A stretch of 64,000 nt of DNA from Naegleria gruberi (Eukaryota), in the NCBI GenBank assembly GCA_000004985.1, contig GG738873.1. One strand, 5' to 3'. A model generated the notes under the pieces. The model saw only the letters and a list, made by a program, of their open reading frames with translations, had not been told where the DNA came from and searched no databases. Below are positions 3,124 to 64,000 of this stretch, one piece after another. The translations under genes were made by a program, and so were the position numbers. Position 1 is the stretch's first letter, and every line of letters begins with the position of its first letter.

Positions 3124-3154
3124 ATTAACATATATAAGATCCAAGATTTAAATA

Positions 3155-26900: not shown

Positions 26901-27473
26901 GAATGAATTAATACGAGAATTAATGTATCCATTAAGATTCAAATACACGCTGTTCTGATAAATAGTTACTTCCAAATAATTATTAAAACTACCAGAGACG
27001 GACTCGATGGATATCCACTCATTACCATTAAATAAACTCAGGACAATTTTGAAATTGGCCATATCAATTTTTAAAACTGGATTTGATAAAACTGAACAAT
27101 CTCCATCTGAGGTTGTAAAGTTCAATGCAAAAGTCTCTGCCTTAATAATGTTCAACATGTCAATATTTGATGATATTACAATTCCTCCATTACTCGCAGT
27201 ATCATTTCTTAGATATTTACTTTCAACATTTCCATTATTATAGTTCAATCTGTTCCATATCCAAGACTGAACATCCAAATCAAATTTGTAATATATGTTT
27301 CCAGTAGAAGCGCCTTCAACAACACTCAAATTTCCCAATAACATTAAGGCTTGTAAACAGCACAATGTCATAATGATCAGCAGCAAACCACCATTCCTAT
27401 TCGCATGCCAACGCGATGAAGAGTTAATTTCATCTCCTCGCATTGTTGAAACATGCAACTGTTGGCTTTTCAT
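17928..27473 (-). CDS. Giant type I membrane glycoprotein, about 3180 aa and apparently intronless. It has a signal peptide, scattered EGF-like Cys modules, an internally duplicated domain of about 110 aa, an Asn/Ser/Thr sequon-saturated region of about 900 aa, and one TM helix. Its short cytoplasmic tail is conserved with the giant gene at 48788-64000
   Basis: First ATG at 27473 ('MKSQQLHVSTMRGDEINSSSRWHANRNGGLLLIIMTLCCLQALMLLGNLSVVEGA'). EGF-like 'CFGVEQTSNLTCFGNGICISNDTCSCLENYIGLNCSIPVCFG...'. TM 'IVGGSIGLLLVVAFCATLVAGVGWYFI'. Tail 'RRKKKNNVGKYVFYDNN...LQDLFEKINT...TTTT..DAEEDDIGDFITRGVSYNTWV'. Confidence 0.8.
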   Translation of the reverse strand: MKSQQLHVSTMRGDEINSSSRWHANRNGGLLLIIMTLCCLQALMLLGNLSVVEGASTGNIYYKFDLDVQSWIWNRLNYNNGNVESKYLRNDTASNGGIVISSNIDMLNIIKAETFALNFTTSDGDCSVLSNPVLKIDMANFKIVLSLFNGNEWISIESVSGSFNNYLEVTIYQNSVYLNLNGYINSRINSFSSLDSFVNFISNSSMFVIEPHVQIEKLSLILQTSSQKSCFGIFADEPGVCSGKGTCTDQDVCQCENTGDSPDSECKPTSTRSRVGNFCNMKQDGYCYDMLDNKLDYTKETLLMYSYLHDGPFCSNIIDFFNDVSCQSESFRIGQAIYYGVPAHSSYFSVPSSASDSYKGEPVKLYLVDKLTGASFPCENVKLTPGLDNDFSVSLSEDSYCSITDPNIYLLLSGEFTFNFYFSPLSLESAMTLFDYVNRFKVFISSEKFLVVDLSPIAEGKSMVLDPNLKVNSTYQVTITRNQNMDGTDTFETRVYSYQGYLSTNITLSANATVDKVVQSASIGRNFKDGFLWQFIGSLGGLKYSPKYSTPSEIFNKPIVMCFGKESADPTVCSGHGSCTKNDTCNCYKFFKGDKCDYEVTCRGISGNSSLVCSGNGYCDEITEKCKCKTPYYGVSCQIIDTTVVLLGGYIGLKTNFEADLSYTMEPIVINFTTSSSKKTSSSEQKRLSKFKNNPVSYESFKDKLITYQVFKGSLLVTVDQSWASYDLSTQPVFYISSISPIGIWSLQELHLQNYLTTGGPTNSPRSLRLLSNGLQYFVLNLNDNNLLIERFNSDKQKYKSSSISNTLFTPDLIRYGQPIVRSDGTINVYMPIIEEGSNQTILILSLNQYDEKLDFFTISNDPQIIPYFSIFNGTEERIITYSEKGINVYSLSQIFEVRKLATIPWPWEHFSFATERYLLTAFQTDISIGIYYNEFVTVYAFQTSQILFISPSDLSSNEKKSPDLPPPSYYFYDSEKYVIKIPPVANDNTTNCTTFDNTTTNCTYDNTTITNCTTCGNTPIHLDSTNNSSYVDNSKSSNTTTYYNSNGSSNSTGSNGSVICTPDGQFEDFVLNLEKKYNSKFLLTLTIRKISVCGYYFTYKKQNLTELTISRPMPGTTDSFLDKLVKTQKMNDTAIITIDTSLIDEPVPNVFIVNPTSPVPVNVTLTIPTNNATSRILSSGEDFYALVLDGNQLIVYYYLPNDFNVPFRYSYCPGVFTPEQIRYGTPLLRKNGVLEFYMPIIEESKSQVQTIQKLSLTGGSNTVSSFKIANNPNAIPYFFIFDGFDESVVVVNEEGSFFYSVVVNGTSSDTELAMYYNNTKMSLKNSTRVYQTDNAIVISQADGSSILTPSDKLIEPVERKINTVLLPNPKTLYFDDAIYQVKTNESSISKGSNDVDKNSEGSNNQTVSNTASNNSTLGSQNTTSSNSSLSGTSTGSTNCTSSDSTNDTSSNNNTETFSDSGNNDTNSTGESRTTVSNNTAITNNQTLENNSSSYLNSNSSNGIISNSSNISNSTINFNSSTLQNNTDQLGGNTSISSSNNTSLNNQTNISNNQTIFGKNETNSTGIVDTLGSNNTVSNNTAMTNNQTLENNNTVSSNQTSISNNRNDTSNSGLNSTLVMNVTSSTNFKNSTQDSNYTIGINETSTDGLNTSQVVSNLTGSESLNNTSESSTNSTLNQTSNYNETIKNQSGSSNTSLDSATVNSTNTTNVVNETIIQNQTSVQNGSIIYSSNSTNTNNTNQESEGHNSTTIQNGTINSTNSLINVNSSNTINNYTSMSNDTMIQNSTNNNATSNSTINSSYNSSTTNSYSNFTNSTLNNSSNDNTTWNYNSNSTNNHGINSTINQNNSTSNGATNTTNVFNETLNKNQTSVQNGSIIYSSNITNNSNSNGNNSNSTVNNSSNGTFNVTNSHGNSSLLNNSDSSNITSIDNHGINGTINQNNSTSSGNNSIIDTTNSTSNINNGSSHSNQSSVISNSTTESLSNNSSNILNFSNISTNSSTSNITNSNGNYSTITSNSTTINTSNGTFTNSNNTSQNSSNLSSNVLNNSTSNYDTSNSTNETNYGSNSTILVSNNTSSQTNNSTISNSMNNSYPSVSNSSNSNTNSSNNSNNSTIDDSSPTGNNSSQVNGTTSMSDNSTLSHNSSNSSNNTTESNNGFNNSINSTSSNNGSNTSQSSNNSTSSSNASNSTIDSNHFTPNETLNTTTPTSNSGNNDPTAPSIPKTYCFGVEQTSNLTCFGNGICISNDTCSCLENYIGLNCSIPVCFGTPGINSSVCGGNGKCIEGNLCKCHDGFTGQLCQYQTTTELCKGSFVPAEQITVIDSNIYLQKSLMDTVCGKSLILQSTTLLEGIPSNVTNSNLLKYYTITTDVNTESGDKFLTFDTLLYKSKIPNSLIIWKIDKFSNATQMIIPIINTMDNATYGLVKIIDNPNGDLLGITLKDNSTNVTILEIDTSSKEANISSVFDKGPISFTDIDKGNQVFNPSTNTTTFTFFKEGTSNSSLLVSVNIEAPNETPKEIVIPQSTQKYFTLVLYDHPDQYLLSSDQQTTTISTIVPDIDSSSPEFNELASDSNFVVNKNDLVVLTKDTEKITVTNVNTDVSLIIAVSQLTPDSSVFDQSTQLTKFQPIAYINNDQSEATVLSIRKIYPLYVPVTGSIPIYLEGNYVLPGTRPYLILKYDPLNLILARLPVQTSGSRTRTTFKPFVNAKDLISNFPQDLVMKDSFKVSVQIELISETSDPIPISTDTELTLYRFDLLKVLPKQAYFGDRILAMATFFPPTNNVNLFIRQQYSTEETQIACTVLNSTFCSAKLPLLGTSDSIMNIRAALIQDSISSNYDTKLFIRYVDPEVVKVTSLDKFDTSISPPEDIPDQDTTPPIIQRQETTETVQPPLIIKMNIGKLNKSKCTDKPIRQVVASSDLHDISNIVSLDFKLSPFSNIENGNLIEFWISKKNNGTFFGGLSFENGKQVLSGGELSSGMKSSASCLFSSGVSYRISMKLTEKGTKWELKNINLDMIDCSLNFVSDNSKILAKPTGYQFGIGQAFSCAQLLSGISQIPELTVSSMMEVCVTCAKSDFSLTQIDYLPYIVGGSIGLLLVVAFCATLVAGVGWYFIRRKKKNNVGKYVFYDNNTSRDSTLQDLFEKINTNSSIDSTPTTTTEDFNMDAEEDDIGDFITRGVSYNTWV
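20800..23300. repeat. Low-complexity coding DNA inside gene 17928-27473, encoding about 850 aa of near-continuous N-x-S/T sequons (Asn about 30%, Ser about 30%, Thr about 15%) with internal imperfect tandem repeats
   Basis: The translated segment 'NSTNNNATSNSTINSSYNSSTTNSYSNFTNSTLNNSSNDNTTWNYNSNSTNN...' shows recurring units such as 'NQTSVQNGSIIYSSN(I/S)TN'. Confidence 0.8.
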
Positions 27474-28961
27474 CTTGTGGCGCGACAACGGTTTATCTAC
27501 AGTTGAAGTGTTGGTTGTTCTTTTCTGTATAGTTTGTTATGAGAATTTTTTAAAAGGTGATATTGATTTTTTGGGTTGATATTTGGGTCTCTGTTCAGAC
27601 ATGTTTGAGCGCACTAAGGTGATGGATCACCGAGATCTGGAAAGATACTAAGCGCGAGCCTTATCATGCGTGGATTTTGGTGTGAGGCTCAACAAACTCT
27701 TTCAATTGCTGCATTGTTGTGAATGGTCTAGAATGATAACGTCCACTTCAAAAAAGGTCTATTCATTACAGTGATTACCGTAAATTGAGACACAAATCCT
27801 CACGCAACAACTGTTGCACATCAGCTAATAGCAGCAATACATTTTGATTCAATGGAGAATATTTAAAATTATGATGAATTTGATTTGATCCGAGGGATCA
27901 CGTTGCAGTTTCTCAATTTTTTCATCTAATAATATTTCCATGTGAATACTTTCAATGATGATTTTGTTGATGATCTTTAATCCTATTGTTGCTCTCTTAA
28001 GTCAGCTCATTCAATGAAATTAATGCTCATCTAGATAGATTATTACAATTTTTTCATCTTTAATTCTTTACATCAAAATATTTGACGATTTTTTGATATG
28101 GAAAGAAAAGTGATGAGTGAAATTTGATGATTTTAAAAAAATATTTTAACAAGAAAAATTTCATCAAATTCGCAACATGTTTCATCATGGATGATTTTCA
28201 AAGGCAATTCTTCATCACTTCCAAAACCATTTTCAACACAACATGATACGATCATTTGGAATGTATAGAAATTAATTTTATTAAATTTCAACATGAATTT
28301 CAAATTTTAAAAGGCAATGATTAAATTGATGGCGAGTCTTGTTCAATTGGAGAGGTAAAATTCACTTTATTGAATGATAATCATCAGAAATATAACAAGT
28401 AAATGGATGCCATTCTTTTACTTGAAATAGAATTTCATCAATTTATTAATTTTAATATTTTCATCATGAAAAACATCAGACAAGACAATAAGAAGACGAT
28501 GGGCATGTTCTAAATGTTCATTAACATCACCTCAGAAAGTTTCAAAACTTTCCATCAAGCACATGTAGAGTTGGAGAAGATAAAGTAAAATTTAATTTCA
28601 TCAAAGTGAAAAACACTTTTTGGTAAACCTGTTCAATTTCAAGAGGAGGCACAAGATTTGTTATTGTACCACATCATAAAGAATGTTTTGCCAATGTTTT
28701 TCGATTATTTTCCAGAGATGATAAAGTTGAATTTTCACATGCTTCCAAACATTATTCATTCATTATTTACTTGATAAATCTTCATCAGGACAATAATAAA
28801 TACATCACTTGGATGTTATCTAACATTACTATTCATCTCATTGTTTCACTCCAAAAGTTTTCCAAGATATCCAACAATCCTCCCAACAAGAATATTTTAC
28901 CATCATATTTCCAGCAAAGAGTTGTATGAATTTGATTTGTCTTTCACATTTTGATAAGAAT

Positions 28962-32285: not shown

Positions 32286-32903
32286 ATGGTTGAAGCTACA
32301 TGTTTTGGATTATTGGCCAGCAATCCGAGGGTTTGTTCAGGTAATGGAAATTGTACATATTTAAACTTTTGTGATTGTCAAGACGGTTGGGATGGTAATC
32401 AGTGTCAAGCCTTAACAGCAATTGATATTAGAGAAGTAATGTTTGGATTTTCAATTACTGGTCCAATATTAGCTGTTATTATTTCAATCTTACTGTGCAT
32501 TCCCTTCATTATTTATATTAGGAGAAGGAAGAAGCAAGAGGAAGCAAGGAAATCAGCATCAGCTGCTGCTGGTAGTAATGTAGATACAAATTCCTCTTCC
32601 GATAGAGTGATAAGGTTTAGTGGACGAGGAAAGAGTAATAGTAATGCAGGTGATGATATTCAACGATCGCCCACCCATGCCTATCTTAAACCTCATCCTT
32701 TCACATTGGGTCGATCACACAGTGAGAGAACTGACCGATCTGATGATATACTTATTGGCAAATCAAAAAGTCCTCCTCCTTCAAGCATATCATCATTGGG
32801 AAAGACAAGGAGAGAATTGAGTGGAAGCTTTTCTGAGCCTAAAACACCAAAGAGTCCAAAAGATACTTCCAACATACTGAACGATGAAATGAATCAAGTT
32901 TAA
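32286..32903 (+). CDS. Small single-pass membrane protein: a single EGF-like module, a TM helix and a basic, Ser-rich cytoplasmic tail. It has no signal peptide, so it is possibly a fragment derived from the EGF/TM giant-gene family, or an upstream exon is missing
   Basis: 'MVEATCFGLLASNPRVCSGNGNCTYLNFCDCQDGWDGNQCQ' then TM 'VMFGFSITGPILAVIISILLCIPFIIYI' then 'RRRKKQEEARK...'. The 3' end overlaps the convergent gene 32900-35800 by 4 bp. Confidence 0.4.
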   Translation: MVEATCFGLLASNPRVCSGNGNCTYLNFCDCQDGWDGNQCQALTAIDIREVMFGFSITGPILAVIISILLCIPFIIYIRRRKKQEEARKSASAAAGSNVDTNSSSDRVIRFSGRGKSNSNAGDDIQRSPTHAYLKPHPFTLGRSHSERTDRSDDILIGKSKSPPPSSISSLGKTRRELSGSFSEPKTPKSPKDTSNILNDEMNQV

Positions 32904-43261: not shown

Positions 43262-45053
43262 ATGTTCAACTCTGTCGATAAAAGACAAGGCAATCATCTA
43301 TCCGAATTTGATTATGGATACGAAGCCTCCAGTCCAACAAGTCAAACCAATGAACAATCCTACTATACTAATACCAATACTACCACCAATAACAATAACA
43401 ACAACAATAATGGATCGGACGACGAAGGTGGTGATGATACAGTCGACATGACCTTCTCTCAACTCTACGAAATGATGAAGCAACAACCTGTTGAAAACAT
43501 TCCCGCCAATATTTTACAAACCCTCTCAAAAAAAGATTTGGTCTTGTGTGAGTTGAGGCGAGAGGGCATGAATCCACAATTTAAAAGGGATGCTGAATAT
43601 TGGTACAATACATTGAGTGTATTTACTCATCAATCGAATCAAGATGTTATTATGAGTGATTTTTCATTGGCTAGTAATATTACTGAAAAATTTGAATTAA
43701 TTGCTTTGGAAAAGAAGAGAATTGATATTTTGAGAAGAATGTTTATAGTGTTACGTTATGGAGATTTATTATATAGAAAATCAAAGAAAACTAATGATTG
43801 GATGCCTTGGAGTGAATTGAAGGGTTTACCAATTGCTACTGCCATGTCACATGGTTCTAGAATTATTATTCAATTACCTAAATCTGCAATGGCAGCTGAA
43901 AAGAAGGGAATCTTTTCAAAATTAAAGAATACACTTCGACCAAAGGATGAAAGCTCTCACGATCATGGTTTTTGGACTTGGTTATTGTGTGGTGATGAGA
44001 ATGGTAGTTTGGAAATGGTAGTCACTCCAGAAACAACAAATGGAAGTGTAAGTTTTAATATTTCTATCAATAATTTAATAATTATTATGTAAACTACTAC
44101 TATCAATGAAATTTAAATGTCATTTTGATGATATTAATTCACACAATATCACACACTCACTAAATACATATTAATCATTGTGCTAAATACATATTAATCA
44201 TCATATGATGAACATTAATTTTATAATACAATATAATTAGGAAGCTGCAAAGAAAGGATATTTATTATTTAAAAGAACAGCAGCAACTCACAGTTTAGGA
44301 TATTATACAGACGAAATTAAAGATGAAGAATCACCATCTTCACCTGCAGGTGGTAAAAAGAAGAAGGTCAAACAATTGAGAAGAATCACTGCTAACTATA
44401 CCGATCAAAACAATCAAAGGGGAACAATGAAAAAACTCAAGGATATTATTGAAATTAAGGAAAAACTAGGATTGAATACCAGAAATTCCAAACTCCTCGG
44501 AAGCAAGGAAGAAGTTATGCTCAAACACAGACATTGGGGACTCAACGTTTCAATGAGTGGATTTGGTAAAAAACTTCCAGTATTTTTACCTTATAAGGAA
44601 GCTAAAAAAGCAAGAAAAAAAGGACCAAAGAAGGGATCAAAAGTTTCATACACAACAGTTGAACCAACTGGTGAACATTCACATATTTATCTTTACTACA
44701 TGTCACCAGGACCAAAGAGGTATGGTGGCATTATGATTGGTGTTGAAGGTTCTGAACCAGGTAAGAAAGACCAATCTGGAGAACACCACGGCATAACCGC
44801 TGGTTCACCTTTTATTGGTGTGACAGATGGCATGAAGTGGAATAAGATTAAGGATATGGGTATGGAAGAATATCCTGACAAGTATGACTCACTCTTTATT
44901 GACTTGTCATCTGGATGGGAATTTTTGAAAGATAAAGTAAATGAGTGGCGAGATGAAATGGTTTTTGAAACTATTTACATTAAACCAGCTCAAGAAGCCG
45001 AAGAAGAAGCTCAATTCAAGGAACAACAATATATTGAAGATGAGGATGAATAA
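43262..45053 (+). CDS. Hypothetical protein of about 534 aa with an Asn/Thr-rich N-terminus. Two exons: join(43262..44047, 44241..45053), with a 193-nt AT-rich intron
   Basis: Donor 'agt|gtaagttttaat' at 44048, acceptor 'caatataattag|gaagct' at 44239-44240. Exon 2 is in frame ('EAAKKGYLLFKRTAATHSLGYYTDEIKDEE...') and continues into ORF 44376-45053 ending 'FKEQQYIEDEDE'. Confidence 0.6.
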
Positions 45054-48787: not shown

Positions 48788-51700
48788 TTAATTCCATACA
48801 GCATAACTATTAACCATAACATTAGGATCTGCATCATCATCATCAAATTCTGGCATAACATTTGTTGTTGTTGCTGTAGATGAGGACATTTGATCATCAG
48901 AAGAATTCATCTTATCAAACAAGTCATTCATTGCATCTTGTAAATCATCTCTGTTGTGGGCATAATCATAAACAGAATACTTGCTACTTCTCATCTTCTT
49001 TCTTCTGTAATACCAAATACCAGCAACAACGAATACCAATACTGTAACTATTAAAATAATTGCAACTGCACCAGAAATTGCTCCAGCAAGAATGGTTGTA
49101 ATATTGGAGGATTCCATGTTAGGTAATAAAGTGGCATGGGCAACACACTTTTGAACTTTACAAGCAGCCACAATATTGTACAAATCTGTTTCAATGTTAA
49201 TGGTTGGCTTATTTAGAATTTGAGTACAAGTTACACTACTTTCCAACCTTAATGTGTAATTATGAGAGAACTTTTCAATAAATTGAGGGTAAGTGATTGG
49301 GAGAATAAAAGAGTTAGAATTACAAATGGCATCTCCATTGCTGTCCTTGATTGTGTAAGAGAGAGTGGCTTTCCAATCCTTATAATCTTGAGAGGACCAT
49401 TCAGAATAATCTAATTGAGAGAAACTGTGTGTAACCTTCATATCTAACTTCATATTTTCACCTTCTTTAAAGTCACAACGAGTAGATATATTTTTGGTTT
49501 CAAATGAATGTACCCAAGTTACTTCAGAATAAAGANNNNNNNNNNNNNNNNNNNNNNNNNNNNNNNNNNNNNNNNNNNNNNNNNNNNNNNNNNNNNNNNN
49601 NNNNNNNNNNNNNNNNNNNNNNNNNNNNNNNNNNNNNNNNNNNNNNNNNNNNNNNNNNNNNNNNNNNNNNNNNNNNNNNNNNNNNNNNNNNNNNNNNNNN
49701 NNNNNNNNNNNNNNNNNNNNNNNNNNNNNNNNNNNNNNNNNNNNNNNNNNNNNNNNNNNNNNNNNNNNNNNNNNNNNNNNNNNNNNNNNNNNNNNNNNNN
49801 NNNNNNNNNNNNNNNNNNNNNNNNNNNNNNNNNNNNNNNNNNNNNNNNNNNNNNNNNNNNNNNNNNNNNNNNNNNNNNNNNNNNNNNNNNNNNNNNNNNN
49901 NNNNNNNNNNNNNNNNNNNNNNNNNNNNNNNNNNNNNNNNNNNNNNNNNNNNNNNNNNNNNNNNNNNNNNNNNNNNNNNNNNNNNNNNNNNNNNNNNNNN
50001 NNNNNNNNNNNNNNNNNNNNNNNNNNNNNNNNNNNNNNNNNNNNNNNNNNNNNNNNNNNNNNNNNNNNNNNNNNNNNNNNNNNNNNNNNNNNNNNNNNNN
50101 NNNNNNNNNNNNNNNNNNNNNNNNNNNNNNNNNNNNNNNNNNNNNNNNNNNNNNNNNNNNNNNNNNNNNNNNNNNNNNNNNNNNNNNNNNNNNNNNNNNN
50201 NNNNNNNNNNNNNNNNNNNNNNNNNNNNNNNNNNNNNNNNNNNNNNNNNNNNNNNNNNNNNNNNNNNNNNNNNNNNNNNNNNNNNNNNNNNNNNNNNNNN
50301 NNNNNNNNNNNNNNNNNNNNNNNNNNNNNNNNNNNNNNNNNNNNNNNNNNNNNNNNNNNNNNNNNNNNNNNNNNNNNNNNNNNNNNNNNNNNNNNNNNNN
50401 NNNNNNNNNNNNNNNNNNNNNNNNNNNNNNNNNNNNNNNNNNNNNNNNNNNNNNNNNNNNNNNNNNNNNNNNNNNNNNNNNNNNNNNNNNNNNNNNNNNN
50501 NNNNNNNNNNNNNNNNNNNNNNNNNNNNNNNNNNNNNNNNNNNNNNNNNNNNNNNNNNNNNNNNNNNNNNNNNNNNNNNNNNNNNNNNNNNNNNNNNNNN
50601 NNNNNNNNNNNNNNNNNNNNNNNNNNNNNNNNNNNNNNNNNNNNNNNNNNNNNNNNNNNNNNNNNNNNNNNNNNNNNNNNNNNNNNNNNNNNNNNNNNNN
50701 NNNNNNNNNNNNNNNNNNNNNNNNNNNNNNNNNNNNNNNNNNNNNNNNNNNNNNNNNNNNNNNNNNNNNNNNNNNNNNNNNNNNNNNNNNNNNNNNNNNN
50801 NNNNNNNNNNNNNNNNNNNNNNNNNNNNNNNNNNNNNNNNNNNNNNNNNNNNNNNNNNNNNNNNNNNNNNNNNNNNNNNNNNNNNNNNNNNNNNNNNNNN
50901 NNNNNNNNNNNNNNNNNNNNNNNNNNNNNNNNNNNNNNNNNNNNNNNNNNNNNNNNNNNNNNNNNNNNNNNNNNNNNNNNNNNNNNNNNNNNNNNNNNNN
51001 NNNNNNNNNNNNNNNNNNNNNNNNNNNNNNNNNNNNNNNNNNNNNNNNNNNNNNNNNNNNNNNNNNNNNNNNNNNNNNNNNNNNNNNNNNNNNNNNNNNN
51101 NNNNNNNNNNNNNNNNNNNNNNNNNNNNNNNNNNNNNNNNNNNNNNNNNNNNNNNNNTTTCTTTTGGTAAATCCAATGTTTGATGCAGTCTTCTTGATTA
51201 CATTCAACTTGATGAATGTATTCTTAACTGTATTCACAAGGTAAATAATATCGTCAACTTTAACAATACTGATCTTGTCAGAGTATTCGGAAAATTGAGA
51301 AATACTTGATGGGTAATTAGCAATTTGTTCAAACTTCATAGAATCTGTCCATAGATTGGTTTTGGAATCTTGTTGAGTAACATTTGCAATAAAGATCTTT
51401 GTTCCTTGATCAGTAATGGTGGCAATCAATATCTTGATACCTGAGGCTTCAGTAGCAGAGATTAGCGCTCTAGCGTTAGAAACTGCGTCCTTGTTTGGGA
51501 ATTCAACAGTTGATATGATTCTAACTCTAGCATCGAAGAAAATAAGGGTTGGTGTTAAGGTATATCTATTACTAGCTGTAAAGACAATTGAAGTAGTATT
51601 ATCAACAACAATATTCAAATCCTTAACTGTTTCTCTGTTGAATGTATGATTGTACAATCGTTTGTTGTCGTATAGGGTTGTCTTGATAATACTGTTTCCT

Positions 51701-54700
51701 GAGATATCTCTAGCAGATAAGGATTCATAGAATTCAATAGTAGTAACTGTAAAATTATTTGTGTTAATGGTAATACCATACAAAACAGAGTCCATAATAA
51801 AGATCTTATCAATTTGGTCTGCTTCAGTAAGGCTTGAAAGGTATTTCCAGTTTGAAATTGAGTCAACAATATCCATTTGTGTATAAATTAAAACTGAGAA
51901 ATCATCATAATTAATTACTGTAAAGTAATAAGTCCCATCAAATATTGTTGGAGTAGTAGATTTGATAGGAGATGAAGGTAAACCCAACTCGGAAAGTTTT
52001 TGGGAAGATATGACCACCAAATTACTGCATGCTACATCCATTACAATAATGTCAACCGATTTGGAAGTAACTGAAACAGAATTGACTGTAATATTGGAGC
52101 AAGACTTACTGCTGTCAAAATATTCACAATTCTTGCCGGTAAATTCTTGCTCACAAGAGCAAACATTAGGGAAAACACATACACCATGAGTGCTACAAGC
52201 ATCAGCCAAAGTCTTGTTAAAGCAAACAGGAATGGAACAATTTTCTCCTCTATAATCAGGCCTGCAAACACAAACATCTTGTGAGATACAAGTACCGTGA
52301 GCCGAGCAATTATTTCTATTGGCACAATCAAAGTATGAAGTAATGTTACATTCAATACCCTCGAATCCATAGTCACAAGTGCAATTGTTTGGAGCAGCAC
52401 AATATCCTCTATTACAAGCGTCCTTACCATACTTTTCGTAACAAATAACATACTGACATTCTTCTCCAGTATAACCTTCAGAGCATTTGCAATTATTGTT
52501 AGAAATACAAGCACCCCTGCCACTGCAAACTTGGCTATTATTGACAGATAAACCATAACAAGTATACCAATTACATGTATCAAAATCGTTACAAGTACCC
52601 TTCTTGGCACATACGTTTGGATCAGTGGCTGGTAGTCCATAACAAACCGGTGTAGAACAATTGGTTCCGATATAACCATTGCATTTACAATTGTCTGGAT
52701 AGGTACAATTTCCGTGTCCATTACAAACATTGGTTTCATTAGCTGGAATGTTATAACAAATAGTAAATTCACATTTTGGACCTGTAAAACCTTCACTGCA
52801 TTGACAGGTATCTGGCAAAGAACAAATACCACGACCAGTACAAACATTTTGAGAGTCTGAAGCATTAAAACCATAACAAATTGGAATGGAACAATCTTTT
52901 CCAACATAAGTTGAAATGCATAAGCATAAATCTGTATCGTTACAAATACCATGCCCATAACAAACAGTTGAATCATTTGAAAGAATGTCGAAACAATTTG
53001 AAACTTCACAAGCTGAACCAATGTATCCATTTGAACAAGTGCAATGGTTTGCATAATCACAGGAACCGCGATTGGAACAATCAGTAATATTGTTGACAAT
53101 ACAAGTCCAGTTTTGACAATTATTTCCAAAGTAGTTTGTTTCACATTCACAAGTATTATTGCCAATACATTTTCCTCTGGAGCTACAAACATCTGTTTCA
53201 TTACTTTCCACACCAAAGCAATGGTAGTATTCACAAACATCTGGTGCAATACATTTTCCAATTCTTCCACAAACAGTACTTGTATTAGATACCACACCAT
53301 AACAATTGGTAAGGGAACAGTCTGGAGCAAAGTACCCAACCTCGCATGTACAATTATTAGGTGAACCACAAATACCTCTTCCACTGCAAACTTCTGTTTG
53401 GGTGGAATCAAAGCCAAAGCAAATAGGAAGGGAGCAGCTTTCTCCATCATAAATAGGATCGCAAACACAAGTATCCTTATCCACACATAAACCATGTCCA
53501 GAACAAACATTTGAATCATTTGAAAGAATGTTGAAACAAATGGAAACTTCACAAGCATTACCGACATGTCCTTCTTCACAAACACAGTGATTTGCATAAT
53601 CACAGGAACCGCGATTGGAACAATCAGTAATATTGTTGACAATACAAGTCCAGTTTTGACAATTATTTCCAAAGTAGTTTGTTTCACATTCACAAGTATT
53701 ATTGCCAATACATTTTCCTCTGGAGCTACAAACATCTGTTTCATTACTTTCCACACCAAAGCAATGGTAGTATTCACAAACATCTGGTGCAATACATTCA
53801 CCAATTCTTCCACAAACATCTGGGTGAGTCAAACGTAATCCACCACAAGTTATAATTGAACAATCGACACCATCGGTATTGTTGTTACAAATGCAGGTAT
53901 CAGGAGCAACACAAACACCCTTAGAGCTGCAAACTCGTATGTCTGAAGAATTGAGACCAAAACACATAGGAATAGAACACACACTTCCAGTGAATGTGGA
54001 ATTGCAGCTACAGGTGTCATGAGAAATACATTCACCATTGTTGCTACAAACACCAGATTGGTTGGATAACAAACCATAACAAATTGGAACTTCGCAGTTA
54101 GAACCATAATAACCGTCATTGCAAACACAAACATCTGGTTCAGAACACAATCCGCTTGAAGAACAAACTGTTTGCTTGTCTGATGGAATTCCGTGGCAGA
54201 CAGGATATTGACATTCAGGACCACTGTATTGTGAAGTGCAATTACAAACGTTAACAGCAACACAATGACCATGACTATGGCAAGTACTGGAACTGTTGGA
54301 TGAAATATTAAAGCACTTATGGAACTCACAGTCAGAACCATCGTGTTCATTATCGCAAGAACAAGTGCTTTCAAATTCACAAACTCCAAAGCCACTACAG
54401 ACCGTTGTGTCATTACCTCTTTTACCATTACAAAGAACAAGGAAAATATCAGGCAATGCTTCACCCAATGAGAATTCTAAACTATACAAGGAGCCATCCA
54501 ATTTGGCATCAGAAACACCTGGTTCCGAACCAATTGTGTTTTGTTTTCCCTTGTTGAACACAGTATTTCTTATCCTCCAATCATCTAGCAAAGTTGAGTT
54601 TACTAGTTTTCTAGTACCATCAACAAACAGGCTAGTACCATGGTTTGTGCTCTTAGAGACAGCAACGGTGTGAATATTATTTTCAAAGGTATGTGGTATG

Positions 54701-57700
54701 TTGATATGGGATTCTAGACCATCTGACAAATTGAAACTTAATATCAAAGTGTTATTTTTGTAAACTAATTTCCAATCGGCACCACAAGCAAAATTGAATA
54801 GTGTATGAGTTTTTGAAGGAGAACCATTCATTTTGAATGTAAGAGAAACGGTAAAATTGTTAGAAAACCATCTATCGAATGGTTGATAAACTCCAAGCTT
54901 ACCAAGCACATCAGCCTGTCTTATTGAAAGGGAGATATTTGAGGAGGTAGTCACTTCAGTGCCGTACCCATCAGTAGTGTTGTCGTAAGCCACTGCAACG
55001 ATATCATTGTCAGAACCATTTCCAAACACATATTTTCCTTCGACATATATTGACGAGTTGAAAATTATTGTCTTGTACATAGGTTCCTTTGCTGATAATT
55101 TACAGTCATCACCAAAATAAGGACTGGTACAAACACATGTGTCAACATCAATGCAAGCACCATGATTGGAACAAACTTTTGCTGTGTCGTTAGCATACGC
55201 ACCAAAGCATCTTGGAATTTCGCACCAAGTACCAATCCAATCTTTCTTAAGGTTAGGGTCTGTAGCGTTTGTAGGGTTACAAATGCAATTATCAAGGGAG
55301 TCACATTTTCCATGGGCACTGCAAACTTTTATCAGATCGGTATTTAGAATGTTATTACAAAAATGATATTCACATTTTTCACCAGTGTATCCAGTCTTGC
55401 AAAGACAAGTGTGATTATTAGTGCACTCACCATGTTTACTACAAGCAACGTCGTAGGTTTCATTATGGCATTTAGGCTTAGAACAGTAAAGATCTGTCCA
55501 CAAGTCTTCGCAAGTGCAGTTATTCTTATTATGACAAGTACCGTGACCATTACAAACGAATGTACTGTTGGTGTTCATTATATTATTACAAGTAAAGTCT
55601 TGGCAATACTCTCCATAATAATCGCTAAAGCAGTCACATTTGTTGTACTCAATGCATTTACCTCCTTCATCTTTCTTTTTAAACGAACATTGCACGTTAT
55701 TATCGGAAGAAAATGGAATTCCAAAACAAACAGGACCTTCTTGGTCATAACGGCTTTGTAAACTTTGAGGACTATTCTCAATAGAGATGGTGCTATTGAT
55801 AGTCAAAGAGCTAAGTACAGCAGCATCAAACCTCAGGTTGGATATGCTTCCCATAAAGTATGATTCCCTTGTACTTGGATTATAGCCAATCGCTGACATT
55901 ATATGAATATCAATAGTACGTCTCCAAGAGTAGGTTGTATCAGTGTCCACAAAGCAAGTAGAGAACTCATTGTTAAAACAAACTGAAAGTCCGTTACTGG
56001 TAGAATCTTTAGTGACAGAAACAAAGTAGTATCTATTATATTTCAATAAGTTGCTAACCGATCTAGTTGTGTATTGATCAGTTAGAGACAGTGTAAATCC
56101 ATCAATGGATTCAGTTGCAACTAGCTGCCAGTAGCTTGGAGATCCCATGTAAATAACTGTTTGGGAAGAATTTCCATCCTTCTTTTCTTTCTTCAGCCAC
56201 AAAGTAACGGTGAAATCGTTGTGGAAGAAAACCATGTTTGAATCATGGGCAATGTCAATCTTTGATGATGATCCATCAAAGTAAATACCACTTCTATTTG
56301 AGTTTAACCCATTTGTAGTAATACAATTTTCGCACTCCAATTCTTCGTTGCAATACTTGGATTTTAGACTGTCTGTTTCTTGAACGAGATGTCCTCTTAT
56401 GAATGTCGAATAACCTTGTGTAGTCAAGTTATTGAAATCATACACTTGACTTGTGGCAACCAAGCTGCAATCATCAGCAACATATCCCTTCTTACATTCA
56501 CAATTGTCTGTATATACACAAACACCATGTCCAGAACAAACGTCGGAAGACAATGTAGAAATACCGTAACAGGTAGTGTAGTCAGCAAAATCTTGAATGG
56601 CCTGTTTATCTGAAAAGCCTCCTGCAACAAGAGCAATGAACTTGAAGAAACCATTCAAGGAAGTAGAATTAACATTGTTAAAACCGAAATAAGTTTCTGT
56701 TACCGCTACTAGACTTGTAGTTGATGACAATCTTACAGATGGTAAACCATTGATATAAATGGTAACACCTCTCTGCTTTGACTTTACAAGCGTTACAACC
56801 ACAACAGAGTTGTCAGAAGGTACAACATTATTGTCTGTTTCCACTGTTTCAATTTCAGATTTGTTACTGTTCAAATAGCCAATATATCTAATCGAATTGA
56901 GTGGAGTCTTTTCCAAGAAGAAATTTGATGAGACTATTGGCTGGGCTTGGGTAGATGTATTATCAAATGAAAGTACTATTGTAAATGAAAATTCAGTTTT
57001 GATATTGAAAGGAGAGTTTAAATAAGGTGTAAAGTAGCTATTTTCTCCGTTAAATATAGCACCCTTGTTGTTTGTTATGGTTGCATTGTTGATTATCATT
57101 TGGAAGAGACTGTCTCGGTCAATTACTACTTTGTCCTCAAGGATTGCTTTTGGGTACCCTATTGGTTGGTCAGCAAGAGCAAAAACAATTCTGTCTCCAT
57201 CTCTTAGCGAAACAGAGGAAATAGACAATTTTGGTAATGTTGAAAGTAAATTACAGAATGGTGCACAGGACAGGGTTGGTGTTGAATTTGTGCTTGAAAA
57301 GAAATCTGATGCATTATCAGTTGTACAGACACCATCAGTAGTATTGCATGTGGTCTTACTTGAATCTACTTGACAATTGGATCCAACGTAAGGAGTTTTG
57401 CATTCACATTTATCTGGAGCAGAACAATATCCTTTACCTGAGCAAACTGTTTTTTCATCTTCAGCTGAAACACCAAAACACAACGGAGTTTGGCACTCTT
57501 CACCAGTGTAATTACCATTACAGACACATACATTTCCACCAAAGCAAACTCCATTATGGCTGCACACAGAACTTTCAAGTTGGGAAATTCCAAAACATGT
57601 AAACAAACTAGTATCCACCCCAGAATAGTTGATTGGATCTATTCTGATAAGGATGAGAGATTCTAAAGTTCCGTTCAAATAAATAGGCAAGTCATTCACC

Positions 57701-60700
57701 AAGTCATAACCCACAAAGCTTTCACTTGTCAAAGAAGGATTTAAGGCTAGGAATTCTGGAACACCTCCAAAGAGTCCAAGAGGATTACCGTTTACCAGAA
57801 CAGTTGTCACGTAACTTTTAACAACATTTACATGGTACAGTAAACCAGTGTATGGAATGGCATCCTCTACGGTTAAGGTAATTGGCGATAGAGATGTTTC
57901 ACTAATTCCTTGGATAACAAGAGAAGACCCATCCAAAAAGACTTTCCAGTAGCCTCCATCTTTGAGACTTATGATTGGTTGGATTCCTCCCAAAGATTGA
58001 AGTCTAATATCAAAAGACAAACTAAAGTCATCAGAAAACAAGGTCAAAGGAGACGGATCTTCCAAAATATCGAAGATGACAGATGATTTACCAAATTGTA
58101 AATAACCATTGTTATCAAAAGAAGGATTCTCCACCATTAGGTTAACATGATAAGCTAAATCAAGCAATATTCCGTACATAGGGGCATTAATATCGAAAGA
58201 GTGTGTCAAATTCGAATTTACCACCAATGAGGTATTGTAAGAGATGAACTTGGAGTGTGGTGTATAAACCAAACGATAGTATGGATTTTCTTCCAATGTG
58301 GTTGTTTGGGTAGTCTTAATTTTTTCAATGTAAGAGTTGTCAACTTGACAGTTATTGCCGGAATACCCTACTTTACATTTACAAAAGTCTGGTTTAGTAC
58401 AAGTTCCCTTTCCAGAGCAAACATTCTTATCTTGTGATTGAACTTTGAAACATATTGGGTACTTGCAGTTAGTTCCATAATAACCAACTTTACAAGTGTT
58501 AACAGTGGTATTGACCACACTTGGCTTTGCAGTTGGGTTTGTCGATAATCCACAAAACATGGCTTCAGCGGTAGTTTTTGTATTGTTACAATCAATACCA
58601 ACCTCTATCGTTCCATTGTTAGTCTTATTCAAGTAGTTACTTGGATCATCTAGAGTACAATTAGGATTTCCTTTACATAGAGTGTTTGTAACATCAATAG
58701 AACAGTTTGCTCCAATAAATCCAGGATTACAGGCACATGTATCAGGTGCCTCACAAAGTCCTTTACCAGAACAAACTCTCTTATCATCCGAAGCAATACC
58801 AAAACAAACTGGAGTAGAGCATTTAGAGCCAGTATAATTAGAATTACAGGAACAAACATCCAAACCATAACATTTACCATGGCCATTACAAACTGATGGT
58901 TCAAGTAAAAATGTACCATCACAAGTAAATGCTCTATCAAGTATGTCAGTTGGTGATTGTGGTGTTGAAGCAACAACTATCTTACGTATTTGACCCATAA
59001 AATGTGATTCCTTTCCATCCACAAAGTTATAGCCTATTCTTGCACCCATATCTTTACCTGCCATTGTATTCTTATAGTCTCTACTGAATACAGAGGTGAA
59101 AACTTCCTTATTATTTACAACAACAGATGTACCACTTATGGACGATTTGGTGATTAATATAGAGTAGGGCACATGTTCTACCTCTATTACATATGGAATT
59201 GATATTACTTCAGGTTTTATCAACTCTTTGGTATTACCTTCAATAAACAACACACGGTCAAGCAAGTAAATGTTAAAAGCTGCAACATCAGAAACGAAAA
59301 GTATAGGACTAATTGCTTCGAAACTGTCAATTGTCAGATCTATGTAAATAACGAAATCGTTGATGAATGGGACAAACAGTTTTGAGGTTGGGATGTCCAT
59401 TTTTGCAAGTTTGGGAACAATATAGCTGGCACTATCCACGGACAAGCCTGAAATTTGAACAGTTGTTGAATTTCTAAGTTCAACTAAATTACCAGTTTCG
59501 TCTAAATAAGCTTTGTGAAGCATAAACCTGATGTACGGAATTGTATTATTGCTACTGTCAGGAAGATTAGTTTTTGTAAGGTTATTTGCGGTTAAGTTGT
59601 TGTTTGTAAAGTTACTACTTGTAACATTGTCAAATGTGAAATTGCCCCTACTATTTGTATAGTTATTATATGTGAAATTACCAATTGTAATATTATTGCT
59701 TGTAAAGTTACTAATTGTAAAGTTACTAATTGTAATGTTATCACTCGTAAGGTTACGGATTGTTAAATTAGTATATGTGAAATTACCAATTGTAATGTTA
59801 TCACTTGTAAAGTTACTATTTGTAAAGTTACCAATTGTAATATTATCACTCGTAAGGTTAGTGTTTGTAAAGTTACTGCTTGTTGAATTAGTATATGTGT
59901 AATTACCAATTGTAATATTATCACTTGTAAAGTTACTATTTGTAAAGTTACTGATCGTTAAATTAGTATATGTGTAATTACCACTTGTGGTATTCTCATA
60001 TGTAAAATTATAATAGGTAAAATTGTTGAGTGTCAAATTCGGTATTTCCGTAATTCTCATCACCTCGTTTTCTGGATAATTTGCATCATTTTGGCAATTT
60101 TGTCCCGTAATAGAATTTCTAAAACATTTACAAAAATCAGGCTTGGTACAATTACCATTTCCACTGCAAACAAGTGGATCTTCTGATTTAACACCAAAAC
60201 AAATTGGTAAAGAACAATTTGATCCATAATATCCTTCTCTGCAAGTGGTTACATTTAAGAGACCTGTTGCATTCTTCTTGGAGCAAAGATACAAATTATC
60301 ACCTGTTGGGTTTGTACAATCAATTTCAAGATCAAGAGTTCCATTAATCTTTGTATTATTACATTTACCTTCAGGATTGGTACATGTCGCCATACTAACA
60401 TTTGTTTGACACTGTGTGCCAATAAAACCAACTTTGCAAGAACATTGATTTGGTTTCTCACAATAACCATTTCCTGAACAAACCTTAGAAAAAGTGGCAG
60501 GAATATTAAAACAAACTGGAATATTGCAGATTGAACCAATGTAAGTGACATTACAGATACAATTATCATAACCAACACATTTACCATTACCACTACAAAC
60601 TTTTGGTGAGGTCATAGATATATTTGCACAGGTGAAAGATTTGTCATTCTTTGGAGGATATTGCGGATCTTCAATAGGTGGAAGATTATCATTGAGTGCA

Positions 60701-63700
60701 ATTTCAATCAAATCTAAAGTTCCTGAAAATCCAATAGTGGATCCATCATCCAAAATATCAAAACCAATGTAGCTGTCTCTATTTTGATTCAATGTATCAA
60801 TATAATCATAACTGAAAACACTATTATAACAACGTTTGTTGTTGATGTATACTTGTGTCCCCATTGATTTTGATTTCATTATGAATACATCATAAACCTG
60901 ACCTATTAACTCAATTTCATTTGGTACAGAGATTATATAAGGAAGAGGAGAATCTAAAATACTGGCCTTAATAACCAATGTCGTTCCTGTCAAATAAATA
61001 TTGAAAGAGGCACCACTTTGTATGTTCATGATAGGATTGTATGATTTAAACTCTGTTGGTGAAATTGAGAATGAAACGTAAAAGTTGTTGGTAAATAAGT
61101 AAAGAATTGAAATGACATTGTTGGTATTCAATATTATTTGAGTTCCATCTTTGAATGAAATTATGTTATCTTGATCAATTACCAAATTCTTTACAAGTAC
61201 CTTCATTTCACTTCCAAGCTCTTCAATATACATATTACCATCAATGTCTGGTTCACTTATATAAAGAGGATCAATAACAAGTCTAAAACTAGTAAGGTTT
61301 TGTTTCAATTCATTTTGTAAATTAGTAATATTTTGTAGTAATTCAATATTTACACCACAATCTAATCTTGTAAATGTTGAATTAAAACATTTACAAAAAT
61401 CAGGCTTGATACAATTACCATTTCCACTGCAAACAAGTGGATCTTCTGATTTAACACCAAAACAAATTGGTAAAGAACAATTTGATCCATAATATCCTTC
61501 TCTGCAAGTGGTTACATTTAAGAGACCTGTTGCATTCTTCTTGGAGCAAAGATACAAATTATCACCTGTTGGGTTTGTACAATCAATTTCAAGATCAAGA
61601 GGTGTATTAATAGTTGTACAGTTACCTTCAGGATCCATACATGTTGTCATAGAAAGGTCTGTTTGACATTGTGTACCAATAAAACCAACTTTGCAAGAAC
61701 ATTGATTTGGTTTCTCACAATAACCATTTCCTGAACAAACGTTAGGTAAAGTTGCCGGGACAGTAAAACAAACTGGTATGTCGCAATATTTACCAATATA
61801 AATCCCATTACATTCACACAAATCATTACCATAACATTTTCCATTGCTATTACATGCTTTTGGTGATGTCAAGTAAATACCATTACAAGAGTAAGCAAGT
61901 TGGTCGTTCACAATTGCTAATATTTGTGAGTAATTATTACTACCTATTTTGGACATTTGGATATCATCAATAGTGCCAGAAAATGTGATTTTGTTACCAT
62001 CTTTAAAATCAATACCAACATAACTATTGGCAGTTTTGTTAGAAAGTGAGGTCAAAAAGCTGTAACTGAAAACACTATTGTACTCCTCATGTCCATTAAT
62101 ATAAACTTGAGTTCCGTCTTCAAATGATTTCATAATCAAAACAGAATATTCAATGTTAGTGAATTCAATACCATTAGGAACTAGCTGTACTATTGGATAG
62201 GGGAATTCTACAGTCAAGCCTTCAATGGCTAAAGTTGTGCCCATCAAGTAAATACTGAAGCAGGCCCCACTAGTAATATTCATTATTGGATTGTAGTCTT
62301 TGAATTCAGTAACCACAATCTTGAAGGAAATGTAAAAATCATTGGTGTACGTGTATAAGGGAGAAATAGTATTGTATGTACTGATGATTAAACCACTTCC
62401 GTTTTCGAAAGAAATTGTACCATTAGAGACAACAATGTCAACAACGGTAATCTTTAAAGATCCACCCAATTCCTCTAGCACAGCAGTGTCTGTATCAACA
62501 GCGAGCAATTTTCTTCGAGTACTAAACTTTTGACTGCCAGAGCTTGGATAAGTGGTATTTTTTACAAATGTTGGGCTAACTTTTAATCTAAAACTATAGT
62601 CAGGATATTCTGTTCTCATGTTGTACTGGATTTTAATCAACTCTTTAATGTATTCGTTATCAACACCACAATCTCTTCTAGAGAACGTTGAGTTATAACA
62701 ACGACAATAATCAGGTTTTGTACAATTACCATTTCCATTGCAAACAAGTGGATCTTCTGATTTAACACCAAAACAAATTGGTAAAGAACAATTTGATCCA
62801 TAATATCCTCGTGGGCAAGGGTTACCGGGCAATAAAGGTAACGCAACAGATTTACCACCACAAAGATAAATTTCTGTATCAGTTTGTGGATTGGAACAAT
62901 CGTATTCGTTAATATATTTTCGAGTTCTAAAATACTTTGTTGGGTCATTTGCAAAACAATCACCATTTACGTCTGTGCAAGTTGTTGCACTTAGATCTGT
63001 TTGGCATTGTTCACCAGCATATCCAACCTTGCAAGCACAAAAACCTGGTTTCTCACAGTGTCCATTTCCAGAGCAAACCTGAGAACAGTCAGCGGAAATA
63101 CCAAAGCAGACTGGAATATCACAATTTGATCCTGTGAAGTTTCTGTTGCATTCACAAACGTTATTACCATAGCATTTACCATTAGAATTACAAACTTGAG
63201 GGGATGTCAAGTAAATTCCTGCACAGAAGTGTCCCTTATTCTCTCTGAGTAAATTAGCTACTTCAACCGAGGATAATCCGAGGTTGCTGCCGATTTGAAT
63301 ATCATCAATATAGCCATTTAAACTTATTTTATGGCCTTCCTTAATGTCAAATCCAATAAAACTATCAGCATTTTGTTGGGGTAAAGTAACAACAAAGTCA
63401 TAGCTAAATGGAGTAGAATACCTCAATACCCCATTAACAAATACTTGAGTACCTGTGCTAGTTGATTTGGTTATTAATATTGAATATATCTGATTTTCAA
63501 CTTCAACTTCTCCATGAACAGAAATAATGAACGGGGAAAGTTCAATTGTATGGCCTTCAAAAACCAATGTGGTTCCAATTAGATATATGCTAAATGAAGC
63601 CCCACTAGTAATGTTCATGATAGGATTGTAATCAGTAAATTCTTCAATTATCAATTTGAAAGATATATAGTAGTCATTAGTAAATAGATATAAAGGGGTA

Positions 63701-64000
63701 ATGTTTGTCTTTGTGTGCATTATGACCTCAGTACCATTACGGAAAGAAATTGAATTATTATTCAAAACAAGGTTATTGATTTGGATAGTCATATTACCGC
63801 CCAGTTCTTGCAAATATTTCTTGTCAGCAGTAGTGAACATAAAGTCCGAACTAAGTTTAAGTCTGAAAGAATAGTTGGTATCGTTGGCCTTCAAAAGTTG
63901 TTGAATAGTGTATAATTCTTGTAAAAAGGTAGCATTATTACCACAGTTTTGTCCGCTTATGGAGGATTCAAAACATTTGCAAAAATCAGGCTTAGTACAA
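48788..64000 (-). CDS. Giant type I membrane glycoprotein of more than 5000 aa. Its 5' end lies beyond the window edge and an assembly gap falls inside it. It consists of alternating blocks of Dictyostelium-type EGF-like modules and ConA/LamG-like beta-sandwich modules of about 270 aa, a roughly 1200-aa run of almost pure EGF-like modules, an N-x-T sequon array, a TM helix, and a cytoplasmic tail conserved with gene 17928-27473
   Basis: The ORF 49519-63894 is open to the window edge (upstream reads 'CTKPDFCKCFESSISGQNCGNNATFLQELYTIQQLLKANDTNYSF...'). The ORF 48788-49453 is open upstream into the gap ('...LYSEVTWVHSFETKNISTRCDFKEGENMKLDMKV...'). TM 'ILAGAISGAVAIILIVTVLVFVVAGIWYY' and tail 'RRKKMRSSKYSVYDYAHNRDDLQDAMNDLFDKMNSSDD...TTTN..EFDDDDADPNVMVNSYAVWN'. 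EGF modules such as 'CSGNGKCYGNDLCECNGIYIGKYCDIPVCF'; beta-sandwich repeats such as 'YNPIMNI(T/Q)SGA.FSIYL.GTTL..EG...'. Confidence 0.75.
49536..51157. other. Assembly gap (run of N) inside the giant gene
   Basis: 1622 consecutive n characters. Confidence 0.99.
52900..53980. repeat. Intragenic tandem duplication with a period of 540 bp (two copies; about 180 aa of EGF-like modules each), including a core of about 240 bp that is essentially identical
   Basis: 53048-53264 is identical to 53588-53804 ('tttgcataatcacaggaaccgcgattggaacaatcagtaatattgttgacaatacaagtccag...'). The protein block 'CGRIGKCIAPDVCEYYHCFGVESNETDVCSSRGKCIGNNTCECETNYFGNNCQNWTCIVNNITDCSNRGSCDYANHC' occurs twice. Confidence 0.85.
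59550..60060. repeat. Coding microsatellite-like array (9-15 bp units, 'aattgtaaagttact' type) encoding about 45 consecutive N-x-T/S sequons (about 150 aa of almost pure NFT/NYT/NLT/NIT triplets)
   Basis: Translation 'NYTYTNLTISNFTNSNFTSDNITIGNYTYTNSTSSNFTNTNLTSDNITIGNFTNSNFTSDNITIGNFTYTNLTIRNLTSDNITISNFTISNFTSNNITIGNFTYNNYTNSRGNFTFDNVTSSNFTNNNLTANNLTKTNL'. Confidence 0.85.
60060..64000. repeat. Intragenic tandem array of units of about 1.26-1.3 kb (at least three copies plus the start of a fourth at the window edge), each encoding one EGF cluster plus one ConA-like beta-sandwich module. Blocks of about 200 bp are near-identical between copies
   Basis: 'acatttacaaaaatcaggcttggtacaattaccatttccactgcaaacaagtggatcttctgatttaacaccaaaacaaattggtaaagaacaatttgatccataatatcc' recurs at about 60125, 61385 and 62700 (variant). 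'gcaaaaatcaggcttagtacaa' at 63979 begins another copy. Confidence 0.8.

Follow-up and report, generated by a model that had tools for sequence, protein, structure and literature searches.

The 64,000-nucleotide (nt) stretch of Naegleria gruberi DNA studied here (GenBank assembly GCA_000004985.1, contig GG738873.1), called the window in the following, contains in its last 15 kb, on the minus strand, a giant gene that a preliminary description had taken for an EGF/ConA-like modular surface protein of more than 5000 amino acids (aa) with near-identical tandem repeats. The encoded protein is indeed built from ConA-like modules, each followed by a cluster of EGF modules, then a long EGF array, a non-repetitive region interrupted by an assembly gap, a transmembrane (TM) helix and a short tail. 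Three of the ConA-like/EGF units stand in tandem (U1 to U3), and short exact tracts are shared between neighboring repeats. We consider it likely that these sequences form the 3′ ~15 kb of a single very large gene, intron-free within the window, for a type I transmembrane glycoprotein whose repeats are old duplications modified by short-tract gene conversion. The features are collected in Table 1.

Table 1. Features of the giant gene and its protein in the window (positions on the window).
Feature	Position	Strand	Basis or remark
Window part of the giant gene (3′ ~15.2 kb)	48788-64000	minus	stop-free frames and stop at 48788-48790
Repeat unit U3: ConA-like module, then EGF cluster	62652-63943	minus	61-62% nt identity to U1 and U2
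ConA-like module of U3	63217-63909	minus	profile search
Repeat unit U2: ConA-like module, then EGF cluster	61346-62651	minus	67.5% nt and 54.6% aa identity to U1
ConA-like module of U2	61879-62634	minus	profile search
Repeat unit U1: ConA-like module, then EGF cluster	60083-61345	minus	self-comparison, alignment
ConA-like module of U1	60625-61323	minus	profile search
Identity U1/U2			67.5% nt, 55% aa
Identity U2/U3			61.9% nt, 50% aa
Identity U1/U3			61.1% nt, 48% aa
192-nt exact tract, U1/U2 only	60147-60338 = 61410-61601	minus	synonymous difference 0/42.5 sites; shuffle maximum 36 nt
71-nt exact tract, all three units	62739-62809 = 60165-60235 = 61428-61498	minus	shuffle maximum 30 nt
15-nt-period array, ~30 x-N-[FLIY]-T-x pentapeptides (aa ~1310-1478)	59597-60069	minus	Tandem Repeats Finder, repeat finding, translation
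Five more diverged ConA-like modules, EGF clusters between them	54424-59571 (58915-59571, 57589-58314, 56563-57267, 55720-56454, 54424-55107)	minus	
Uninterrupted EGF array, aa 3193-3955, 120 Cys, ~21 modules	52135-54423	minus	Pfam and Cys spacing
Two copies of a 543-nt (181 aa, five-module) higher-order EGF repeat	52822-53907	minus	self-comparison
208-nt exact tract (aa 3582-3651 = 3401-3470)	53048-53255 = 53591-53798	minus	shuffle maximum 56 nt
Non-repetitive post-EGF region, aa 3956-4280	51160-52134	minus	first ~110 aa resemble the paralogue's post-EGF region
Assembly gap, 1622 N, within the C-terminal portion, which is non-repetitive	49536-51157		N run
Extracellular juxtamembrane domain, stop-free up to the gap	49100-49534	minus	translation; family profile match starts here
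Transmembrane helix TTILAGAISGAVAIILIVTVLVFVVAGIWYY, ~31 residues, then RRKK	49007-49099	minus	translation; aligned with the family TM helix
Cytoplasmic tail, ~72 aa	48791-49006	minus	aligns with the tails of four Naegleria proteins and with a metagenome fragment

Gene extent and reading frame

From position 63999 down to 51160 the minus strand, which the preliminary description had left unnamed, is free of stops over 4280 codons. A second stop-free stretch of 248 codons (49534 to 48791) follows 3′ of the gap, whose limits had been given exactly, and is closed by the stop. No start codon for the gene is found inside the window, and its 5′ end lies past position 64000, in line with the earlier statement that it runs beyond the window edge. 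The two stretches are present as such, while the total of about 5069 codons in the window, and with it the plausible figure of more than 5000 aa, depends on a correct gap size and an unbroken frame. The GC content of the window is about 34%. Because the +2 frame of the same 12.8 kb contains 544 stops against none in the main frame, the latter is clearly kept by selection. The window part of the protein contains 283 Cys and 141 N-x-S/T sequons.

Ectodomain modules

At least eight ConA-like (Laminin_G_3-type) modules of ~230 aa are found in the window. They were delimited with a profile built from the in-window modules together with two from the paralogue NAEGRDRAFT_68488, a second giant gene of the window that is described below, which places them at aa 31-261, 456-707, 893-1125, 1477-1695, 1896-2137, 2245-2479, 2516-2760 and 2965-3192. 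Laminin_G_3 (PF13385) was matched by four of the six modules scanned individually, once with 28.9 bits (gathering score 27.6) and three times weakly with 13.8-25.2 bits; the other two gave no match to it, nor was the family listed at E ≤ 0.01 in the Pfam scan of the whole protein. A sequence-profile search of the PDB with the ConA-like alignment returned noise only. The AlphaFold2 (AF2) model of a module shows a jelly-roll beta-sandwich at low confidence, with a mean predicted local distance difference test score (pLDDT) of 46.7, and was used for the fold class alone. We accept a ConA-like fold class for the modules and assign no specific family.

The EGF modules score far higher. In the giant protein EGF_TEN (PF25024) is matched with E 1.3e-104 (349 bits, cut-off 65), EGF_Teneurin (PF23106) with 2.9e-86 (284 bits) and EGF_2 with 2.5e-75 (249 bits). 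The domain annotation that had been suggested as a check therefore turns out firm for the EGFs, which lie above the gathering scores, and weak for the ConA-like modules, of which one exceeds the Laminin_G_3 cut-off. In the uninterrupted array the spacing C-x10-C-x5-C-x5-C-x-C-x8-C is kept, giving a regular 11-6-6-2-9-5 pattern over all 120 Cys, and a higher-order period of five modules (181 aa) including a truncated 4-Cys module is superimposed. The +1 frame of this array has a run of 595 codons without a stop (ORF, that is open reading frame, 52041-53819, minus strand). It was considered as an overlapping gene and rejected, its product being rich in V, L, I, F and M. The run exists because a strong preference for T at third codon positions puts T in the middle of the +1 codons, where stops are then impossible.

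Every pentapeptide of the 15-nt-period array, a run of ~170 aa, is an N-glycosylation sequon; 39 sequons fall into aa 1201-1600. The array conforms loosely to the pentapeptide-repeat consensus and gives a weak match to Pfam Pentapeptide_4 (17 bits, cut-off 38, E 0.006), and its single-sequence AF2 model is all-beta at low confidence (pLDDT 41). The giant protein is predicted to be heavily N-glycosylated.

Repeats and exact tracts

Self-comparison of the window, another check proposed beforehand, confirmed the three tandem units, which are offset by 1263 and 1311 nt, as well as the duplication in the EGF array. The term "near-identical" does not fit them, however. Whole units are 61-68% identical in DNA, synonymous difference over most of each unit amounts to 0.7-1.0 and is hence saturated, and only short cores are identical. 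Likewise, the duplication described as 540 bp with an identical core of 240 bp is present with an offset of 543 nt, but its exact core measures 208 nt. Three units of about 1.26 kb do exist, yet the 200-bp blocks described for them reduce to a 192-nt run in U1 and U2 only, with 71 nt in U3.

The 192-nt tract encodes a Cys-rich insert and one EGF (aa 1221-1285 = 800-864), while the 71-nt tract common to U1, U2 and U3 encodes GYYGSNCSLPICFGVKSEDPLVC. In the 543-nt pair, 52822-53275 and 53368-53818 are 84.8% identical over 454 nt, against 78% over the full copies. To judge chance, the columns of the same alignments were shuffled 5000 times and the longest identical run was recorded (maxima in Table 1). 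The observed runs of 192, 71 and 208 nt all exceed these maxima clearly, and the observation as such is statistically solid. The contrast between tracts and surroundings is sharp: in the 208-nt tract of the 543-nt pair one synonymous difference is seen at 38.3 sites (0.026) versus 0.665 in the flank, and the flanks of the U2/U1 tract, itself free of synonymous change, differ by 0.67-0.95. All exact tracts lie in EGF-coding segments, leave the modules intact and have sharp, in-frame edges. Altogether the homogenized sequence comprises ~470 nt out of ~12.8 kb.

This difference between tract and flank strongly indicates a recent exchange between the repeats. Sharply bounded patches without any divergence, set in old duplicates, are the classic mark of short-tract gene conversion. 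The earlier proposal of unequal crossing-over or gene conversion consequently survives in its second half, with tracts that show almost no synonymous change. Unequal crossing-over is not supported because it would leave whole units near-identical, and only short patches are homogenized. We picture the history as follows. The module duplications are old, their synonymous sites having since become saturated. Two or three recent conversion events of 71-208 nt would then have copied EGF-coding sequence into the neighboring repeat, by homologous repair within the gene and not by expansion or contraction of a variable number of tandem repeats (VNTR).

C-terminus, gap and protein family

The post-EGF region matches aa 2226-2412 of NAEGRDRAFT_68488 with 31% identity over ~110 aa (BLASTP). 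Besides this paralogue, no homologues of aa 3955-4280 were found at E ≤ 1e-3 in a 5.8-billion-cluster collection, and the self-comparison of the window gave no DNA repeats in the region. On the other side of the gap, the TM helix is followed by a tail with the order RRKK, KYSVYDY, ~8 residues, MNDLFDKMN, an acidic and Ser/Thr-containing stretch and the C-terminal SYAVWN. The helix, the basic residues and the tail together provide a membrane anchor of the kind seen in type I surface proteins. Since the giant modular EGF/ConA-like protein ends in such an anchor, a location at the cell surface can soundly be inferred, and type I topology is probable as well. In taking the gene for that of a giant modular EGF/ConA-like surface protein, the preliminary description was right.

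The paralogue occupies 17928-27443 on the minus strand. Read from the Met at 27443 (ORF 17928-27488) it is 100% identical over all 3171 aa to NAEGRDRAFT_68488 (XP_002676241.1 / EFC43497.1 / D2VHY4), a "predicted protein" of N. gruberi, which identifies the window as DNA of N. gruberi NEG-M. The paralogue has a signal-peptide-like hydrophobic N-terminus, two ConA-like modules, EGFs, an Asn/Ser/Thr-rich sequon region of ~800 aa, and the C-terminal module, TM helix and tail of the family. Its C-terminal 882 aa, which reach from where the last EGF ends through the post-EGF region to the TM helix and the tail, served as query in an exhaustive HMMER search of 1.84 billion representatives. Only five proteins were matched: D2VHY4, D2VLI8 (NAEGRDRAFT_69794) and D2UZ30 (NAEGRDRAFT_61792) of N. 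gruberi, C9374_003931 of N. lovaniensis and a 269-aa metagenome fragment. A profile built from the four long proteins aligns with the 248-aa piece of the giant gene at positions 705-876 of 877 (E 1.2e-14); aa 3890-4280 of the giant protein gave no match to the same profile. Common to the tails of the family are a basic stop-transfer sequence, [KH][YF]V[YF]Y, xDLF[DE]K[IM]N, an acidic stretch and an aromatic C-terminus. The in-window ConA-like profile detected no modules in other family members.

The gap separates the post-EGF region from the juxtamembrane domain. Its flanks (836 nt below, 1043 nt above) match neither any other place in the window nor each other. The idea that the gap reflects a collapse of the repeats is therefore without support, both flanks being unique and located where the C-terminal sequence is non-repetitive. 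Likewise rejected was a spurious gap whose edges overlap, the flanks being unlike each other. In NAEGRDRAFT_68488 the corresponding stretch between the last EGF and the TM helix consists of roughly 780 aa of non-repeat sequence, and because ~466 of these ~780 aa are visible here, ~300 aa or more should be missing in the gap. This is compatible with an ordinary sequencing gap, which may also hide a different repeat.

In all four full-length family members, which are 2085-3506 aa long, the C-terminal module ends the protein. Because it does so in every one of them, and because the 248-aa piece has no signal peptide, we regard the two sides of the gap as probably belonging to one gene. Continuity across the gap is thus deduced from the open frames, the missing signal peptide and the position of the family tail. 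The first ATG after the gap, at 49453, could open a 221-aa ORF, whose N-terminus is not signal-peptide-like.

The 5.8-billion-cluster collection holds other N. gruberi proteins, and no close or identical entry for the repeat units or the post-EGF region was found in it. A homologue search with two repeat units gave EGF-level matches only (~35% identity, ~20% coverage, in Naegleria, Acrasis and protists) and recovered no orthologue of the ConA-like units. The giant gene seems to be without a public protein model; one containing a run of X may have been filtered out.

Weighing the interpretation

Several points weigh against the reading of one large receptor gene with locally converted repeats. 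With the gap at its nominal length of 1622 nt, the open frames flanking it are out of register, and the N-terminus with any signal peptide lies beyond the window. The ConA-like assignment draws on weak Pfam scores and a model of low pLDDT, with an empty PDB search. No close protein from the 5.8-billion-cluster collection backs the gene model independently. Small templated insertions or replacements via other repair routes are indistinguishable from gene conversion, and the function is deduced purely from the domain content.

Among the alternatives, a hypervariable VNTR-like adhesion or allorecognition gene, the repeat number of which changes fast by unequal crossing-over as in the FLO/ALS or tgr genes, fares best and is nonetheless improbable. 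The tandem modular build with recent sequence exchange would suit it, as would the restriction of the family to one lineage and the distance of ~49-64 kb from a telomere-type (CCCAAA)n array, since subtelomeres often carry fast-evolving surface genes. D2UZ30, a paralogue elsewhere in the genome, moreover has tandem ConA-like modules that are 62-82% identical in aa, and for this reason varying homogenization is a family trait. The units here, however, are ancient, with 48-55% aa identity and synonymous sites at saturation; nothing points to the recent duplication of an entire unit, the homogenized part is small, and even the 15-nt array is diverged (67-83% matches). Two Joint Genome Institute (JGI) metagenome scans, one with a protein and one with an exact 41-mer from a shared tract, revealed no alleles of the gene. 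Pfam scans showed no IPT/TIG domains, and with Naegleria as the host, the comparison with Dictyostelium tgr and allorecognition loci that had been drawn is without support.

A related and bolder idea is that of an unannotated Naegleria-restricted receptor of more than 5000 residues, with a conserved signaling or sorting tail, in a subtelomeric cluster, in which ongoing intragenic and possibly ectopic conversion shuffles EGF/lectin modules and so diversifies mating-type, kin or prey recognition. If true, this would give protists an equivalent of the contingency systems known for surface genes, but we give it little credence. A "fast-evolving surface gene cluster" retains a low probability because of the subtelomeric location together with the paralogue and the EGF ORFs close by.

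It is also unlikely that the gap hides a gene boundary, separating a huge secreted EGF/ConA-like protein from a small membrane protein, or a disabling lesion that would make the locus a pseudogene and account for the missing public protein model. The frames do differ if the gap is exactly 1622 nt long, but gap sizes are estimates. Neither part is matched by a collection protein, yet other plain ORFs of the window such as the LigB gene described below are also without an N. gruberi entry. The ATG at 49453 could start the small protein; its product, however, has no signal peptide although the topology requires one, and the tail module always terminates giant proteins in this family. Finally, 4280 stop-free codons at 34% GC, next to the many stops of the +2 frame, are incompatible with decay.

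Very unlikely, in our view, is an origin of the exact tracts, and of the gap, from misplaced reads in assembly or consensus building: a draft scaffold with two N gaps in 64 kb and repeats as a classic source of consensus errors may raise the suspicion, but the tracts span just 71-208 nt within sequence that differs by 30-40% on both sides, so that reads of a few hundred bases anchor uniquely (the genome was reportedly assembled from roughly 8x Sanger reads), the tract edges are sharp and in frame with intact EGF modules encoded, and the gap flanks are unrelated to the repeats.

In the preferred reading of one large receptor gene with old, locally converted repeats, the giant protein, judged by its domain content, would act at the cell surface as a multivalent receptor for adhesion or recognition. 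The lectin-fold modules would bind glycan or protein ligands on substrate, prey or other cells, rigid EGF spacers would hold these modules off the membrane, and the conserved tail would link the protein to an intracellular partner. The family members are all uncharacterized, so that membership gives no function. A literature search on Naegleria EGF, LamG or adhesion proteins returned nothing relevant; the only relevant statement in a preprint on DGF-1 is that DGF-1 homologues are absent from N. gruberi.

Surrounding genes

Positions 1-335 of the window consist of ~55 tandem AACCCA copies (G-strand TTTGGG), a telomere-type array, because of which we regard the whole 64 kb as subtelomeric and the window as a scaffold or chromosome end. 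A paper on a TTTGGG telomere repeat of Naegleria was not found in the literature search. Beside the array, in very AT-rich sequence, lies a second assembly gap (986-3123, 2138 N).

The neighbors of the giant gene in the window are eukaryotic in kind, with RCC1, BTB, DEP-RGS and GNAT genes; RGS and Ntox11 genes and unknowns are also present. Further EGF- or RCC1-domain ORFs are located at 9492-10376 (plus), 32286-32903 (plus), 5355-6959 (minus) and 7144-8595 (plus); combinations of RCC1 with EGF, and of RGS with RCC1 and EGF, recur among homologue matches in Naegleria and related protists. Two adjacent plus-strand ORFs at 43262-44092 and 44376-45053 each match one half of Pfam Ntox11 (PF15521, "Novel toxin 11"), with E 2.5e-37 and 7.5e-78. 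Probably both are exons of a single gene, and a free-living amoeba would then possess a toxin-family domain.

A LigB/DODA-type extradiol dioxygenase is encoded at 15729-16517 on the minus strand. No N. gruberi protein for this ORF was among the 120 best matches listed; in these matches the best named one comes from N. lovaniensis (53%), and numerous Bacillota (Paenibacillus, Ammoniphilus) come next with 42-51%. The matches point to a gene that escaped annotation and may stem from bacteria. A 1680-nt metagenome contig of the European Nucleotide Archive (ENA ERZ929261, PRJEB11402) is 97% identical in DNA to window positions 14809-16482, which shows that public metagenome sampling has reached a close relative of N. 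gruberi NEG-M.

Conclusions and comparison with known systems

In summary, we describe what would be one of the largest genes of N. gruberi, an amoeboflagellate in wide use as a model. As it is apparently without a protein model, it would be missed in surveys of adhesion or surface proteins that start from the proteome. Together with its relatives it points to a small Naegleria-specific family of giant type I glycoproteins with a conserved tail, which are candidate receptors for the recognition of substrate, prey or cells, including in relatives of the pathogen N. fowleri. Short conversion tracts on anciently duplicated modules may further illustrate how EGF arrays stay locally homogenized. 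The domain types and the mechanism are well known, and nothing conceptually new is involved.

Yeast FLO/ALS and Dictyostelium tgrB1/tgrC1 resemble the giant protein by analogy only, as surface proteins with internal or allelic diversity shaped by recombination. In FLO/ALS whole repeats are near-identical and variable in number, which is different from the diverged units found here, while the tgr proteins have IPT/TIG folds and form a polymorphic ligand-receptor pair, and neither a TIG domain nor a partner gene was seen here. With the EGF arrays of teneurins and tenascins the protein shares compact six-Cys EGFs in long uninterrupted arrays. Teneurins, in contrast, are type II proteins with NHL and YD-shell domains, none of which was detected in the giant protein.

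A likeness in architecture is offered by neurexins, Crumbs, agrin, the LG modules of laminin alpha and pikachurin, in which beta-sandwich lectin-fold modules alternate with EGFs; neurexin and Crumbs also have a single-pass type I topology. The homology to these metazoan LamG/LNS-EGF proteins is at the domain level only, and the modules here fit Laminin_G_3 (PF13385) and not PF00054 or PF02210 of the LamG type. With a heterolobosean as the host, the likeness is probably the result of independent domain shuffling.

The nearest relatives are the giant Naegleria proteins 68488, 69794, 61792 and C9374_003931. Compared with them the gene described here is larger, with more than 5000 codons and more ConA-like/EGF units, the middle of its C-terminal part falls into the gap, and the similarity of its post-EGF region is weak. 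They nevertheless agree in the EGFs directly before the C-terminal module, in the richness in sequons, for 68488 in the N-terminal ConA-like modules as well, and in the juxtamembrane domain, the TM helix and the motifs of the tail.

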